Made by a program: the position numbers and the translations under genes
DNA from: a virus
DNA: 64,000 bases
Direction: 5' to 3' (one strand)
Virus record (IMG/VR): IMGVR_UViG_3300033066_000693
Coordinates: 1-64,000 of that record
Notes under the pieces: generated by a model
What the model was told of the DNA's origin: nothing
Seen by the model: the letters and a program-made list of their open reading frames with translations, nothing else
Database searches by the model: none
In this document: positions 42,043 through 56,102 of the stretch, piece after piece
How positions within the stretch are numbered: position 1 is the first letter of the stretch
Layout: the number at the start of each line of letters is the position of its first letter

Positions 42043-42795
42043 ATGAACTGGTCAATTCTCAGGAAAATACCGAATGAACCCTTCCTTGGCGAAAAACAAG
42101 CCAAGGGAACTCATTTGATTGCTGGGGAATTGGCTCAGGCCTATTGGAACCTGCAAGTCGAGTTCATGGCCCTAGCGCAAGGTTTTGGCTGCGTTCCTGT
42201 CATTCTGCCAACCATTGAACCAGCCAAGATCTATACAGACAAGGCTGGGCCAGAAGTGGCTGGTCAGATGTACGTATTCAAGGATAAGGGAAACCGAGAT
42301 CTTTGTCTACGACCTGAGGCAACGGCAACTTGCCAACTTCTCGCTCAAAACGTCTACAAGACCTACTCCAACCTAAAGCTCTGCTATTGGCAGAAATGCT
42401 TTCGATATGAACAGCCTCAAGCTGGTCGCTATCGAGAGTTTACTCAGTTTGGAGTTGAAGTCCTGAATCCTAAGCAAGATTGGACTGACGAGTTGATATC
42501 TCTTGCTCATTGCATGATCAAGATTGCTCTTGGAGAAACTGTTCAATCAACCGACGCCAAGGGAATCGTTCCTGAGATTAACCGTGGAGTAAAGCGGGGC
42601 TTAGGAATCTACACTGACGAAGGCTTCGAAATTTCCATTGCTCAACTCGGAGCGCAGAAGCAAGTCGCTGGCGGCGGTCCTTATGAGAATGGACAAGGGT
42701 TCGCAATTGGTATTGATCGTCTCCTTTGCGTTGACGGAGTTGTTGAACGCTGGGGCAAACCGGAATACGTCACTCATTTGACGGTGAAAGCATAA
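42043..42795 (+). CDS. class II aaRS catalytic-core paralog, HisRS/HisZ-like (no anticodon-binding domain)
   Basis: LRPEATA and motif 2 FRYEQPQAGRYREFTQFGVE; only 250 aa. Confidence 0.55.
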   Translation: MNWSILRKIPNEPFLGEKQAKGTHLIAGELAQAYWNLQVEFMALAQGFGCVPVILPTIEPAKIYTDKAGPEVAGQMYVFKDKGNRDLCLRPEATATCQLLAQNVYKTYSNLKLCYWQKCFRYEQPQAGRYREFTQFGVEVLNPKQDWTDELISLAHCMIKIALGETVQSTDAKGIVPEINRGVKRGLGIYTDEGFEISIAQLGAQKQVAGGGPYENGQGFAIGIDRLLCVDGVVERWGKPEYVTHLTVKA

Positions 42796-42796
42796 G

Positions 42797-43771
42797 ATGT
42801 TTGATAAGTTCACAGATCGCGCTCGCAAGGTAATGGCTCTTGCCAATCAAGAAGCACAAAGATTCAACCACGAATACATTGGTTGCGAGCATATCCTGCT
42901 TGGACTTGTAAAAGAAGGTTCCGGCGTTGCAGCAAACGTGCTAAAGAACTTGGATTGCGACCTGCGCAAGGTTCGGCTCGAAGTTGAAAAACTCATTAGA
43001 AGCGGCCCCGACATGGTGACGATGGGCAAGCTTCCAATGACTCCTAGAGTCAAGCAGGTCATTGAGAATGCAAATATTGCCGCAAAAGACTTGCGACACG
43101 TTTATGTTGGTACTGAACACATCTTGCTAGGACTTTTGAAGACTCCTGATAATGTAGGAACTCAAGTCCTTGTAAATATGGGATTGTCTCCTGAGGTAGT
43201 CTATGAAGAGATTATCAATCTCTTGGGAGCAGGAGAAGATCCATTGCCTCCTCCGGACCCGTATCTAGTATCAGTAGATGAACTTGCAGAGCGGGCGCAT
43301 AGAGGGCAGACCCGTAGCAACGGACAGCCTTACATCAATCATCCTCGTTCGGTAATGAATCGCCTCAAGAGGGCTGGTATTACTGATCCTATTGTATTGG
43401 CAACTGCATTGTGCCATGACATTGAGGAAGATACGGAGATAACTCCTATCGAGATTGAACTGTTCGCTGGTCCTAAGGTTCGTGAAGCTGTTCGTCAGCT
43501 TACAAATAAGGTTCCTCCGGGCACTTCTTTCGAAGCAAAGACTGCGAGCATGCTTGAACACGCTCGTCATTACAACGATATTGCTAAGCGGGTAAAGCTA
43601 GCAGATCGCTATGATAACCTTGCTGATGCTGTTTTTGAATGGCAGCCTGACAGGGTACGGCGATATGCTATTGCTGGTATGAAGCTCTTGGATGCAATGT
43701 CTCCCATGCCAGAAGATATGAAAGCATTTGAGGCGGAAGCTCGCCGTTTCTTTAGTTGCTTGATCCCCTGA
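42797..43771 (+). CDS. fusion of Clp_N double repeat with RelA/SpoT-type HD (p)ppGpp hydrolase domain
   Basis: Clp_N repeats (EHILLGLVKEGSG, EHILLGLLKTPDN); HD domain RAHRGQTRSNGQPYINHP ... ALCHDIEEDT. Confidence 0.65.
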   Translation: MFDKFTDRARKVMALANQEAQRFNHEYIGCEHILLGLVKEGSGVAANVLKNLDCDLRKVRLEVEKLIRSGPDMVTMGKLPMTPRVKQVIENANIAAKDLRHVYVGTEHILLGLLKTPDNVGTQVLVNMGLSPEVVYEEIINLLGAGEDPLPPPDPYLVSVDELAERAHRGQTRSNGQPYINHPRSVMNRLKRAGITDPIVLATALCHDIEEDTEITPIEIELFAGPKVREAVRQLTNKVPPGTSFEAKTASMLEHARHYNDIAKRVKLADRYDNLADAVFEWQPDRVRRYAIAGMKLLDAMSPMPEDMKAFEAEARRFFSCLIP

Positions 43772-43828
43772 CTCGCAATCCCAAGTTGCTTGCGCAACAA
43801 CACTGATCTCTAAGAAGGTGGTTCCAAA

Positions 43829-53601: not shown

Positions 53602-53608
53602 TGATATT

Positions 53609-54025
53609 ATGGACCGCAGAAACATTCAGGAACTTATAAAAGGCCTAAAAGGTGACGCCAATACATACCTTGCCATTCTCATTCAAGCTGGGCAGGGGTG
53701 CGACTATACAATTGGTTGCGGCATGACCGTAAGCTTTCTGAATGTACCAGACCCTTCTCAACTTCAACAAAAAATCCGCAAGCTACTGGAATACTACGGC
53801 ACCGCTCAAGAAGTCGAAGATGGAGTCTACAAGATTACTCAAAAGCCTAATGATAGGGCTATTGACTACGTTCTCATTGTTAAAGCTAGTGAGGTATCTG
53901 ATATTGATGTCAACCAGCTTAGAGCAATGGACTCTCCCTATTGGGAGCAAAAAGCCAAAGACGAAGAATTGGCAAAAGACCGAGCCGAACTCGAACGATT
54001 GCAGGCAAAACTCGGAACGACCTAA
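53609..54025 (+). CDS. hypothetical protein
   Basis: start MDRRNIQ; TAATG overlap with the next gene. Confidence 0.35.
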   Translation: MDRRNIQELIKGLKGDANTYLAILIQAGQGCDYTIGCGMTVSFLNVPDPSQLQQKIRKLLEYYGTAQEVEDGVYKITQKPNDRAIDYVLIVKASEVSDIDVNQLRAMDSPYWEQKAKDEELAKDRAELERLQAKLGTT

Positions 54026-54648
54026 TGACATGGCAAGCTTGGAAACCTGAGTTTGACGCAGAACGTAAGCTAAAAGACGTTCTAGCAGAAATGCCTCGCG
54101 ATAATGCCGACAAGATCCCTTGGCAGGTCTGGTTGTTAGAGAATCCTGACAGTCCCTTCGCATTCCCGGGGTCTATCAACCTTTTCCGGCACGATTGCAT
54201 GCATGTTCTTCTTTGCGCCTCATTTTGGCCGGAAGACGAAGCGTTCGTAGTAGGCTATACAATGGGAACCAGTAAGTGGTCTTCTCGTTGGTCGCTCAAA
54301 ATCTTCATGTGGCTTACTACATGGTTCTATCCGGGCGTTTACCGCTGGAACAAAGAACTTCTCAGGTCATTCGAAGACGGATTCAATCGAGGCAATGCTT
54401 TTGGCATGCGAAACTTGAATTCATTCCCATTCGAGGACTATACTGATCTGTCATTGGCGCAGCTTCGCAAGCTCGTCGGCGTAGATTGGCTTGACACCAC
54501 GGTGAGTTACAGAGAATGGGCTAAGCATTGGCCGATTGACCGATTCAAAGAATTCGAACATCTCAAGGGAGAGATGCCGCAACCGGGCAAGAATCCGATC
54601 ACCTACTTCTTGCGAAAAGTATTCGGCGGAAGAAAGAACGCAGCATGA
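54025..54648 (+). CDS. hypothetical Trp-rich protein
   Basis: start MTWQAWKPEF. Confidence 0.35.
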   Translation: MTWQAWKPEFDAERKLKDVLAEMPRDNADKIPWQVWLLENPDSPFAFPGSINLFRHDCMHVLLCASFWPEDEAFVVGYTMGTSKWSSRWSLKIFMWLTTWFYPGVYRWNKELLRSFEDGFNRGNAFGMRNLNSFPFEDYTDLSLAQLRKLVGVDWLDTTVSYREWAKHWPIDRFKEFEHLKGEMPQPGKNPITYFLRKVFGGRKNAA

Positions 54649-56102
54649 ATCTCACCAAGCTTGAACAAGTTCGCATGGACAGGTTACGTCAGCTTCCTCA
54701 TCCTTATGGACGAGCGAATAAGGATGTGCAGTCTATTAGTCATGCTCGCGATGCGTTCGAAATTGCAGAAAACGCAAAGTCTGAAATCCCTGTTACTACA
54801 TTGGTTCAGGGACGAATCATTCTTCTGCGCGACAATGGAGGGTTGATCTGGCTAAAGATTCGAGACGATAGCGGGGAGATTCAGATCGCTATTAGCAAGA
54901 AGGACGTTACCAACGAAATCGCTTTTGGCATTGCCAAGCTGTTCGATCTCGGAGACATTATCCGAGCTACTGGTCCCATCCGCCGAACAAAGACTAATGA
55001 AGTCACTGTTTGGGCGTCTGATGTAGAAATTGCCTGCAAGAGCCTTGCACATCCTCCCGATAAGGTTGCAGGATTGCAAGACGTTGAACTTCGATATCGC
55101 AAGCGATATCTTGACATGGCATTCAATCCTGAGTTTGTCAAGACCGCTAAGATGCGATCTTTGATTGTGCATGAGTTGCGCAATCAAATGATTGAGAATG
55201 GCTACATGGAAGTTGAGACTCCCATGCTTCATACTCTCGCTGGCGGCGCAGCAGCCAAGCCGTTTGTAACGCATTTGAATGCGCTTGATATCCCGTTGTT
55301 CCTCCGAGTCGCTCCTGAGCTTTATCTCAAGAGGCTCATTGTTGGCGGTCTTCCAGCCGTCTTTGAAATCAACCGCAACTTCCGTAACGAGGGAATCGAC
55401 GCAACTCATAACCCTGAGTTCACTTCGCTTGAAGCTTACAAGATCAACGAAGATGTTCATTCTCTCATGAACTCAATCTCTGATATCTTGCGGCATATTG
55501 CTGCTGCGGTAATCAAGAAGACTGGTAGTAGAATTTGGTATAACGGCAGGGAAATCGACTTCGGAGCATTTGGTAAGCCATTCAAGTGTATTTCCTACCA
55601 AGGAACGTACTACGCTGTCACCGGCGAAGACTTGACAAAGCTTACAGATCCAGAAGACTTCATTAAGGCCAACAAGAGATTTGAGGCGGAATGCGAAAAG
55701 GTCATTGACCCGACCGTTCCAACTTTTGTCTTGGGTTATCCTTCTACTATTTCTCCATTGACTCGTCCCAACGGCGGCGATCCTCGCTTCTGCCAGCGAG
55801 CAGACTTGTTCATTGGAGGGATGGAAGTCGGAACCGTCTATACAGAGCAAAACGATCCGGAAGCTCAATACAACGCTTTCAGCCAACAGCTTGCAGGCGA
55901 AGACGAAGAGGCTGCAACTCATCGAAATCTGGACGAAGACTTCATTGAAGCTCTCAAGGTTGGGATGCCTCCAACTGGCGGATGGGCCATTGGCGTTGAT
56001 CGTCTGGTAATGCTTTTGACAAGACAGACATCAGTACGAGACGTTATTGCATTCCCGTTCATGCGGCCTTTGACGGCTGCCGCTTCGGTTTCGCAAGACT
56101 AG
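54645..56102 (+). CDS. lysS: lysyl-tRNA synthetase (class II)
   Basis: N-terminal OB anticodon-binding domain; motif 2 FRNEGIDATHNPEFTSLEAY; 485 aa. Confidence 0.85.
   Translation: MNLTKLEQVRMDRLRQLPHPYGRANKDVQSISHARDAFEIAENAKSEIPVTTLVQGRIILLRDNGGLIWLKIRDDSGEIQIAISKKDVTNEIAFGIAKLFDLGDIIRATGPIRRTKTNEVTVWASDVEIACKSLAHPPDKVAGLQDVELRYRKRYLDMAFNPEFVKTAKMRSLIVHELRNQMIENGYMEVETPMLHTLAGGAAAKPFVTHLNALDIPLFLRVAPELYLKRLIVGGLPAVFEINRNFRNEGIDATHNPEFTSLEAYKINEDVHSLMNSISDILRHIAAAVIKKTGSRIWYNGREIDFGAFGKPFKCISYQGTYYAVTGEDLTKLTDPEDFIKANKRFEAECEKVIDPTVPTFVLGYPSTISPLTRPNGGDPRFCQRADLFIGGMEVGTVYTEQNDPEAQYNAFSQQLAGEDEEAATHRNLDEDFIEALKVGMPPTGGWAIGVDRLVMLLTRQTSVRDVIAFPFMRPLTAAASVSQD

Follow-up and report, generated by a model that had tools for sequence, protein, structure and literature searches.

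Aminoacyl-tRNA synthetase genes have been described for huge phages, in which, as in the DNA analyzed here, synthetases are accompanied by numerous phage tRNAs, with up to 15 per genome (Al-Shayeb et al., 2020; PMC7162821), and it was suggested that these enzymes charge tRNA variants encoded by the phage itself (PMC7162821). The part of that report drawn on here gives no account of a loss of anticodon-binding domains, of families of miniature enzymes, or of a gene-by-gene adjacency to cognate tRNAs. The analyzed DNA comprises positions 1-64,000 of the virus record IMGVR_UViG_3300033066_000693 (this whole stretch of 64 kb is called the window), and the interval under study was 42043-56102. An earlier note, made from the sequence alone, had reported three synthetase genes in this interval, and all of them were found exactly where it had placed them, i.e., a HisRS-like core of 250 aa (42043-42795), a GluRS-like core of 287 aa (48493-49356), and a LysRS of 485 aa (54645-56102), all on the plus strand. 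That translation genes are clustered here within a phage-like genome, as the note had also described, was supported as well, and the interval is best read as a block of translation-support genes from a large phage of the jumbo type. As phage-encoded synthetases were already known (PMC7162821), finding three of them would in itself add little. The new point is that two of the three are members of large, conserved families in which the enzymes are drastically shortened; these two are called mini-HisRS and mini-GluRS in the following. The favored interpretation, to which a probability of roughly 0.6 was assigned, is that both are catalytically active, anticodon-blind miniature synthetases that serve phage tRNAs, beside a canonical LysRS. 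Domain content, conserved residues, the breadth of the families, and the linkage to tRNA genes are observations, from which the enzyme activity, the specificity for tRNAs, and the benefit to the phage were deduced.

Several compact synthetase-like proteins have been described that can be compared with these cores. HisZ, the regulatory subunit of ATP phosphoribosyltransferase, is likewise a HisRS paralog without an anticodon-binding domain. In contrast to the mini-HisRS, it has kept the insertion region and works together with the short form of HisG (the model TIGR00443 has 314 positions, and chain 3od1 has about 380-400 aa), while the mini-HisRS comprises 250 aa, has retained the aminoacylation residues, which HisZ is not known to possess, and has no hisG gene nearby. 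GluQRS, also called YadB (Escherichia coli, PDB 1nzj and 4a91), which glutamylates the queuosine of tRNA-Asp, is likewise derived from GluRS, with a length of about 290-300 aa and without anticodon-binding domains. A natural compact class II enzyme that ignores the anticodon is the PylSn-less PylRS of Methanomethylophilus alvus (about 275 aa), which was also retrieved when the mini-HisRS model was compared with known structures; unlike the mini-HisRS, it is an archaeal cellular enzyme, belongs to another amino acid family, and follows other tRNA identity rules. Engineered minimal synthetases reportedly include the Ncat HisRS (Augustine & Francklyn 1997), a C-truncated GluRS 1-314 (Dubois et al. 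2009), and HisRS urzymes (Li et al. 2011), and these cores on their own are said to have activated the amino acid and charged tRNA with the help of acceptor-stem information. The same kind of domain removal is seen in the phage cores, but the engineered proteins were made in the laboratory and reportedly lost much of their activity. Those of the phage, in contrast, occur in nature, are conserved, and have become smaller still, as the HisRS insertion domain has been lost, too. A literature search, which was thin on subscription journals, revealed no account of truncated synthetase families in phages or of their adjacency to tRNA genes.

Domain content and families of the two short synthetases

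The mini-HisRS (42043-42795) is a class II HisRS catalytic core that lacks both the insertion domain and the C-terminal anticodon-binding domain. It matched the Pfam family tRNA-synt_His with 63 bits and the hisS model TIGR00442 with 138.6 bits, which is below the curated cut-off of 286.75, while its score with the HisZ model TIGR00443 was lower (74.4 bits, cut-off 271.65). Of the earlier designation "HisRS/HisZ-like" only the HisRS part could be retained, and the profile searches placed the open reading frame (ORF) at 42043 among the relatives of HisRS and not in an unrelated family. The alignment with solved HisRS structures ran through motifs 1 and 2, then HisA and HisB, and then motif 3 (GFAIGIDRL); all three class II motifs and both HisA and HisB have been kept. 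Between motif 2 and HisA the insertion domain of about 85 residues is missing (roughly residues 136-245 of the E. coli enzyme), as are one short loop and the whole anticodon-binding domain. The chain stops about 25 residues past motif 3, and no match to HGTP_anticodon was obtained.

For the mapping of functional residues an E. coli HisRS sequence entered by hand was used, and its numbering was self-consistent for thirteen residues. Every mapped catalytic residue was present: E92, T94, R121, Q126, R129, and R131 of the mini-HisRS correspond to E83, T85, R113, Q118, R121, and R123 of E. coli HisRS, and Q135, E139, R185, Y190, and R226 correspond to Q127, E131, R259, Y264, and R311. They comprise the histidine, ATP, and transition-state set together with the motif 2 loop residues that read G-1:C73. 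All 11 mapped residues were invariant in 26 family members, including the glutamine and the arginine of the motif 2 loop and the ATP- and histidine-binding arginines, which are degenerate in HisZ. The alignment of the 26 members contained 48 invariant positions, the functional residues included. An AF2 model of the protein reached a pLDDT of 89; its best structural match was E. coli HisRS (1kmm), and HisZ was weaker.

The short form turned out to be widespread. At E<=1e-5, 1,470 database proteins matched the mini-HisRS, and the best 120 of these 1,470 matches all had lengths of 171-283 aa, with 48-98% identity, many of them on contigs of 100-500 kb. The best matches in the phage database were the contigs LR745206 and LR756502, which belong to the accession series of the huge-phage study (PMC7162821). 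When 1.84 billion representatives of 50%-identity clusters were searched with a HisRS profile, the top hits, about 40, were all short (132-353 aa), and full-length HisRS appeared only from 188 bits downward. In IMG/VR 56 of 59 HisRS-like loci had the short form, often on contigs of 400-600 kb, and the members of the family mostly have about 180-250 aa. None of the PHROGs families covered the protein. With regard to a single origin of the mini-HisRS family, a neighbor-joining tree built from 206 columns was without resolution; its largest clade composed of mini proteins only contained 29 of 62 sequences.

Loci that carry relatives of the mini-HisRS or the mini-GluRS are designated by L numbers. 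Chromosomal mini-HisRS-like genes of about 209 aa and 40-44% identity are present in a Pseudomonas sp. (L121) and in Paraburkholderia (L122 and L150), at about positions 4917-5546 of the respective loci, where they stand among oxidoreductase, pirin, and LysR genes with no tRNAs nearby. In a subgroup of megaphages (L022, L027, L028, L030, L034, L038, L040, and L041; about 4980-5530) a stop codon is found directly, or at most about 20 codons, before the conserved mini-HisRS N-terminus. No ATG, GTG, or TTG start precedes this N-terminus, and use of the first such start would yield only 145-150 aa, which suggests that translation begins at an unusual codon in these phages or that their mini-HisRS is smaller still.

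The mini-GluRS (48493-49356) comprises GluRS domains 1-3, i.e., the Rossmann fold, a shortened acceptor-binding insertion, and the stem-contact fold, without domains 4 and 5. The class I Glu/Gln catalytic domain PF00749 was matched with 214 bits, and the score of 282.3 bits with the bacterial gltX model TIGR00464 missed the cut-off of 289.95 narrowly, while a relative from locus L063 reached 290.9 bits. With the GluQRS models (TIGR03838, NF00431x) only 163.6-168.4 bits were obtained (cut-offs 250-277), and six other phage mini-GluRS variants also scored higher as GluRS than as GluQRS. The same preference was observed with solved structures (GluRS 211 bits, YadB 78 bits). The HIGH motif (HIGT, residues 16-19) and the KMSKS motif (KLSKR, residues 200-204) are both intact, and R6, Y145, R163, and H167 are conserved across the family. 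The protein aligns to residues 1-97 and 168-301 of E. coli GluRS (8i9i), and the alignment to Xanthomonas GluRS ends at about residue 331 of about 470-490, so that the helical anticodon-binding domains 4 and 5 are missing. The gaps in these alignments indicate that the acceptor-binding insertion is about 35 residues shorter and that the chain ends at the boundary of the anticodon-binding domains. A cysteine cluster was not found in the insertion.

The AF2 model of the mini-GluRS had a pLDDT of 92, with TM-scores of 0.85-0.88 and 36-38% identity to GluRS, versus 0.69-0.74 and 23-24% to GluQRS. Compared with GluQRS/YadB, the protein is far nearer to true GluRS (282 vs 164 bits, TM-score 0.88 vs 0.74), is devoid of the cysteine cluster, and is linked to tRNA-Glu instead of tRNA-Asp or queuosine genes. 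It looks like a truncation that arose independently of GluQRS. The earlier label "GluQRS-like" was correct as far as a Glu/Gln class I core is concerned, but its GluQRS part was imprecise (282 bits for GluRS vs 164-168 bits). The best 120 matches all had 269-322 aa and 56-98% identity, many again on contigs of 100-500 kb, and 54 positions were invariant in 25 members. The short form was found in 52 of 60 GluRS-like loci of IMG/VR, here, too, often on contigs of 400-600 kb, with one further locus cut by the contig end, and family members mostly have about 260-320 aa.

It was also confirmed that both cores are without anticodon-binding domains, as their alignments stop short and no such domains were matched. 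A split synthetase was considered as well and was rejected, because tblastn searches with the C-terminal domains of HisRS and GluRS revealed no stand-alone anticodon-binding domain in the window. The short genes might alternatively be functionless, decaying remnants of captured host synthetase genes. They are indeed truncated compared with the cellular enzymes, and no mini-HisRS is encoded in the related locus L061, but the deletions lie at domain boundaries, the reading frames are intact, and both AF2 models are confident and compact. Furthermore, hundreds of sequences share this short architecture; the identity among the best matches is 48-98%, and the functional residues are invariant. Decay is strongly disfavored and has next to no probability left.

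Linkage to cognate tRNA genes and possible mode of charging

tRNA genes were called with ARAGORN and Rfam, and both tools agreed on the following five. Four tRNA-Glu genes, which the earlier note did not contain, are located directly upstream of the mini-GluRS gene on the plus strand: tRNA-Glu(UUC) copy 1 (47905-47977, Rfam 58.6 bits), tRNA-Glu(CUC) copy 1 (48008-48082, 54.6 bits), tRNA-Glu(CUC) copy 2 (48096-48167, 61.2 bits), and tRNA-Glu(UUC) copy 2 (48173-48244, 47.8 bits), the last of which has a weak D-stem with two mismatches. A tRNA-Arg(UCU) gene (51054-51127, plus strand), also absent from that note, follows downstream of the mini-GluRS gene within a conserved gene order. A sigma-70-like promoter match (TTGACA-17-TAGAGT, 47751-47779, plus strand, 10 of 12 positions) is intergenic and lies upstream of the tRNA-Glu array; the promoter call is weak, as the region contained 21 promoter-like matches versus a shuffled expectation of 17.4. 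A scan of the plus strand for a strong terminator-like site (>=4 G-C pairs) between the promoter match and the mini-GluRS gene yielded none, which is weak evidence. Between the array and the mini-GluRS gene a small ORF of 82 aa (48248-48496, plus strand) is present, the stop codon of which overlaps the mini-GluRS start (ATGA); tblastn in the related loci gave no match, and it is not conserved in the relatives.

The order of these genes has been retained in related phages. In L061-L063 (69-74% protein identity) tRNA-Glu(UUC) and tRNA-Glu(CUC), often with further tRNA-Glu genes, are followed by the mini-GluRS gene and then by tRNA-Arg(UCU). The array upstream of the mini-GluRS gene is also kept in L065 (57% identity), and in more distant phages tRNA-Glu genes are found 0.1-1.2 kb from the mini-GluRS gene. 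The mini-HisRS gene shows the corresponding neighborhood in many phages, with a tRNA-His gene directly beside it inside tRNA arrays (e.g., L006, L009, L029, L031, L032, L040, and L055). The adjoining tRNA-His genes encode G-1 and C73, and often the CCA end, too. One case was found in an isolate, the Sinorhizobium phage Phosso, in which a tRNA-His of the G-1:C73 type precedes by 276 nt a 196-aa gene that bears the annotation histidyl-tRNA synthetase.

The linkage was quantified with Fisher tests on tRNA-bearing loci from which duplicates had been removed, and the two families served as controls for each other. A tRNA-His gene was present within 1 kb in 16 of 40 mini-HisRS loci and in none of 21 mini-GluRS loci (P=4.5e-4), while tRNA-Glu was present within 1 kb in 6/21 mini-GluRS loci versus 0/40 mini-HisRS loci (P=9.8e-4); both P-values overstate the independence of the data, because the loci are phylogenetically related.

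These observations suggest how the two enzymes might function. The mini-HisRS most likely activates histidine and passes it to a tRNA-His, which would be selected via the acceptor end (G-1:C73) with the conserved motif 2 loop and without contact to the anticodon. HisRS is known to charge mini- and microhelices that carry G-1:C73 (PMC9976931), and the motif 2 loop glutamine covaries with this pair (PMC3937112; its role is also treated in PMC9976931). The mini-GluRS most likely charges the four upstream phage tRNA-Glu, with which it is probably co-transcribed, and recognition would use the acceptor stem together with the augmented D-helix. Some GluRS enzymes select tRNAs that have an augmented D-helix and are without nucleotide 47 (PMC9976931), and three of the four tRNA-Glu of the window have both features, with U11-A24 and U13.G22 in the D-stem and a variable loop of 4 nt. 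Recognition of this kind would lead to equal acceptance of the UUC and CUC isoacceptors. All four tRNA-Glu have G1-C72, G2.U71, and A73. A special identity mark composed of G2.U71 and A73 was considered and dropped, because many other phage tRNA-Glu in the loci have the same residues, and they are found in ordinary bacterial tRNA-Glu as well. The net effect would be that phage tRNAs stay charged without dependence on host enzymes. Glu and Lys codons are among the commonest in the window (63.5 and 75.3 per 1000 codons, respectively), which fits a supply role of the synthetases.

The linkage also bears on the question whether the cores have functions other than the charging of tRNAs. The earlier note had proposed non-canonical substrates for them, and as paralogs of synthetases they could act as a HisZ-like regulator, as a ligase to another acceptor, or as a GluQRS-type modifier. 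It is established that paralogs without anticodon-binding domains have such roles, i.e., HisZ, GluQRS, EpmA, and amino acid:carrier-protein ligases. Both proteins stay under the curated equivalog cut-offs for hisS and gltX, the chromosomal mini-HisRS-like genes of Paraburkholderia lie amid metabolic genes with no tRNAs, and aminoacyl-tRNA can feed the hypermodification of phage DNA, as in the case of Mom (PMC13219725). Nevertheless, hisS was preferred over hisZ (138.6 vs 74.4 bits) and gltX over GluQRS (282 vs 164-168 bits), the latter with every phage mini-GluRS variant tested, the catalytic arginines have been kept, and the GluRS-like insertion is without a cysteine cluster. In addition, the linkage is to tRNA-His and tRNA-Glu, and not to tRNA-Asp, and Pfam scans of about 80 ORFs of the 64-kb window revealed no HisG domain and no hisG, tRNA-Asp/queuosine genes, carrier protein, or LanB/PEARL-type partner. 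Because the residue sets are complete and the conserved families are linked to cognate tRNA genes, non-canonical substrates were not supported, and such roles are regarded as unlikely.

Several points weigh against tRNA charging by the two cores. No tRNA-His gene was found in the 64-kb window, nor within 5 kb of the mini-HisRS gene in the three closest relatives, and the absence of the mini-HisRS from L061 implies that it is dispensable there. The HisB motif of the mini-HisRS is GGGP instead of GGGR, which was the sole variation among the tested motifs. The deleted insertion domain of HisRS helps to bind the acceptor stem, and E. coli HisRS and GluRS that were truncated by engineering reportedly fall far short of the full-length enzymes in efficiency. 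Finally, the chromosomal Paraburkholderia genes (L122 and L150) have no tRNA neighbors, and the relatedness of the loci lowers the weight of the linkage.

A number of further observations concern phage tRNAs. In 29 of 39 phage tRNA-His genes from L001-L055 the gene is directly preceded by ATG, i.e., A-3, T-2, and G-1; A-3 and T-2 are conserved across diverse phages. The window encodes a tRNA with the amber suppressor anticodon CUA (24364-24438, plus strand, Rfam 55 bits), and yet TAG ends 11 of 43 window genes. This tRNA was considered as a substrate of the mini synthetases and was rejected, as G-1:C73 is absent from it, and so are the D-helix and the short variable loop of the tRNA-Glu. On either side of the tRNA-Arg gene cysteine-rich ORFs with HNH-like motifs are located (49596-50108, minus strand, and 51190-51543, plus strand), and homologs of the latter recur in tRNA arrays of megaphages (L007, L013, L018, L039, L048, and L062).

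LysRS and the other genes of the window

The LysRS (54645-56102) is by family criteria a complete, ordinary class II enzyme, as had been claimed before. It exceeded both curated cut-offs (NF001756, 488.6 bits, cut-off 468; TIGR00499, 451.2 bits, cut-off 427.6), has the N-terminal OB-fold anticodon-binding domain (PF01336, residues 54-129), and could be aligned end to end with solved bacterial LysRS (9jkl, 353 bits, residues 36-474). In other megaphages shortened LysRS genes of about 342-388 aa adjoin the mini-HisRS gene (302-319 bits with LysRS models; L005, 3288-4451, and L018, 6119-7144), so that miniaturization seems to reach several synthetases. The start codon of the LysRS gene overlaps the stop codon of an ORF at 54025-54648 (plus strand); it had neither a Pfam nor a PHROG match, and ORFs with 53-62% identity occupy the same position in L062 and L063.

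The window is densely coding, mainly on the plus strand, and the standard code reads well. A search for near-identity of the 14-kb interval with 50,697 phage records yielded no match, so that no cultured close relative is at hand. The order of the block is NADAR, a nucleoside deoxyribosyltransferase-like gene, mini-HisRS, Clp_N+HD, (Prs), and then the tRNA-Glu genes with mini-GluRS, followed by the coupled ORF, LysRS, and NadV. From NADAR to NadV the whole block is syntenic in the relatives, except that L061 is without the mini-HisRS gene.

Only 2 nt separate the stop codon of the mini-HisRS gene from the start of the next gene (42797-43771, plus strand), which encodes Clp_N repeats (98.7 bits) and a RelA/SpoT-type HD hydrolase domain (HD_4, 29.6 bits), and is a candidate small alarmone hydrolase. 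The model TIGR00691 spoT_relA matched with 51 bits across residues 162-276. The gene adjoins mini-HisRS also in L002, L003, and L004. A second, weaker Clp_N-containing ORF is located upstream of the mini-HisRS gene (40685-41530, plus strand). This neighborhood raises the question whether the mini enzymes could be decoys or modulators, which would bind uncharged tRNA, form inactive heterodimers with the host HisRS via motif 1, or produce diadenosine tetraphosphate (Ap4A), and in this way steer the stringent response. The retention of motif 1, which is the class II dimer interface, in the mini-HisRS and the pairing with the HD gene in close relatives would be compatible with such a role, and class II synthetases are well known to be able to make Ap4A. 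In contrast, the whole catalytic set is invariant, including the residues for transfer to the tRNA, which is beyond the needs of a decoy, and the adjacency of the HD gene is limited to one lineage, and L061 has the HD gene without a mini-HisRS. An Ap4A role is also unlikely for the mini-GluRS, because enzymes of the GluRS type normally require tRNA for glutamate activation. Altogether, a function as decoy or modulator appears very improbable, and charging of tRNAs remains the preferred explanation for both cores.

The Clp_N+HD gene lies between the mini-HisRS gene and prs, which the earlier note had described as direct neighbors, the putative link being that Prs makes phosphoribosyl pyrophosphate (PRPP) as a substrate for HisG. 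This link could not be upheld either, as no hisG was found in the ORFs scanned, the catalytic residues have been kept, and the hisS score was higher than the hisZ score. Instead, Prs (ribose-phosphate diphosphokinase, 43829-44815, plus strand; NF002320, 382 bits, cut-off 297) fits to the salvage of nicotinamide adenine dinucleotide (NAD). Together with the NadV/NAMPT-type phosphoribosyltransferase (56138-57712, plus strand; NF006629, 519 bits, cut-off 405; Pfam NAPRTase and NAMPT_N), which also exceeded its curated cut-off, it would constitute a phage NAD salvage pair. As the window contains NadV/NAMPT (519 bits), NADAR, and a PARP-like gene, Prs is more simply taken to supply PRPP for NAD salvage, with NadV/NAMPT as the likely consumer, judged from the chemistry. 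Two further translation genes had been announced for the interval. The SpoU methylase is real, but it is encoded outside of the interval at 27773-28378. PTH2, in contrast, was detected neither by Pfam in the roughly 80 ORFs nor by a tblastn search for which human PTRH2 had been entered by hand, and a Pfam scan of ten small ORFs for PTH2 with E up to 1 gave no match.

The remaining genes of the window include a eukaryote-like set connected with ribonucleoproteins and ADP-ribose (20626-23325, 30147-31733, 39664-40167, and 60219-61913, plus strand), the members of which are a major-vault-protein-like gene (MVP shoulder, 104 bits), PARP catalytic plus WGR, NADAR, and Ro60/TROVE plus vWA. A Y RNA was not found near the Ro60 gene with Rfam at E up to 1. 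Halves of an intein splicing domain are encoded by two ORFs about 1.8 kb apart (14364-15260 and 17019-17633, plus strand), the second of which is fused to an RNA ligase domain, with two ORFs in between, one of them a DUF7487; they may represent an intein-interrupted or split RNA ligase. Mobile elements within this phage-like region are a TnpB/IS605 OrfB-type gene (11144-12322, plus strand) and a serine recombinase with a MerR-type helix-turn-helix (5505-6170, plus strand). In addition, a glutamine-synthetase-like protein (18283-19329, plus strand) and two adjacent DUF6065 paralogs (35194-36763, plus strand) are encoded.

tRNA-His types in alphaproteobacterial phages and implications

In several groups of alphaproteobacteria, i.e., Rhizobiales, Rhodobacteraceae, Caulobacterales, and most SAR11, the tRNA-His is reported to be devoid of G-1 and to have A73 and G1.U72 (PMC3064791, PMC3937112). 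With tRNA-His of the E. coli type, charging by the Caulobacter HisRS is lower by a factor of more than 250, and mutual orthogonality of the two systems has been reported (PMC3064791). The mini-HisRS has the ancestral glutamine in the motif 2 loop, and the tRNA-His neighboring it in other phages are of the G-1:C73 type. The work on the alphaproteobacterial systems covered no phage and no truncated enzyme (PMC3064791, PMC3937112), and mutual orthogonality with a phage mini enzyme is at present only deduced from it. The host of Phosso belongs to the Rhizobiales, and yet a canonical G-1:C73 tRNA-His is encoded beside its mini-HisRS, so that a dedicated enzyme for a tRNA that the host handles poorly would be a testable rationale. 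In L029, L031, L032, L036/L037, and L044 a second kind of tRNA-His is encoded, which is without G-1 and has A73 and G1.U72, as in some alphaproteobacteria; a canonical G-1:C73 tRNA-His is also present in all of these loci but L044. As no tRNA-His is encoded in the window, this rationale does not extend to the window itself.

Tentatively, these considerations can be combined into a wider proposal, which is appreciably less probable than the charging of phage tRNAs alone. The two cores might be the smallest natural functional aminoacyl-tRNA synthetases (about 180-250 aa for the mini-HisRS and about 260-320 aa for the mini-GluRS), might use only an "operational code" of acceptor stem and D-arm, and might form self-contained pairs with phage tRNAs. 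The mini-HisRS and a canonical tRNA-His could then be a natural orthogonal pair in phages of those alphaproteobacteria whose HisRS gave up G-1:C73, as in Phosso on Sinorhizobium and in the megaphage loci with both tRNA-His types.

If the enzymes are active, nature would have its own counterparts of the "minimal synthetase" and urzyme constructs from the laboratory that stand behind the argument for an early operational RNA code in the acceptor stem, and the engineering of orthogonal translation pairs that disregard the anticodon could start from compact proteins. With the tRNA-His found in alphaproteobacterial phages, the orthogonality becomes testable in a cultured system, i.e., Phosso and Sinorhizobium meliloti. 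For the phages themselves, active miniature synthetases would account for the ability of large phages to operate tRNA sets of their own, free of host enzymes, of anticodon modifications, and of host shut-off.

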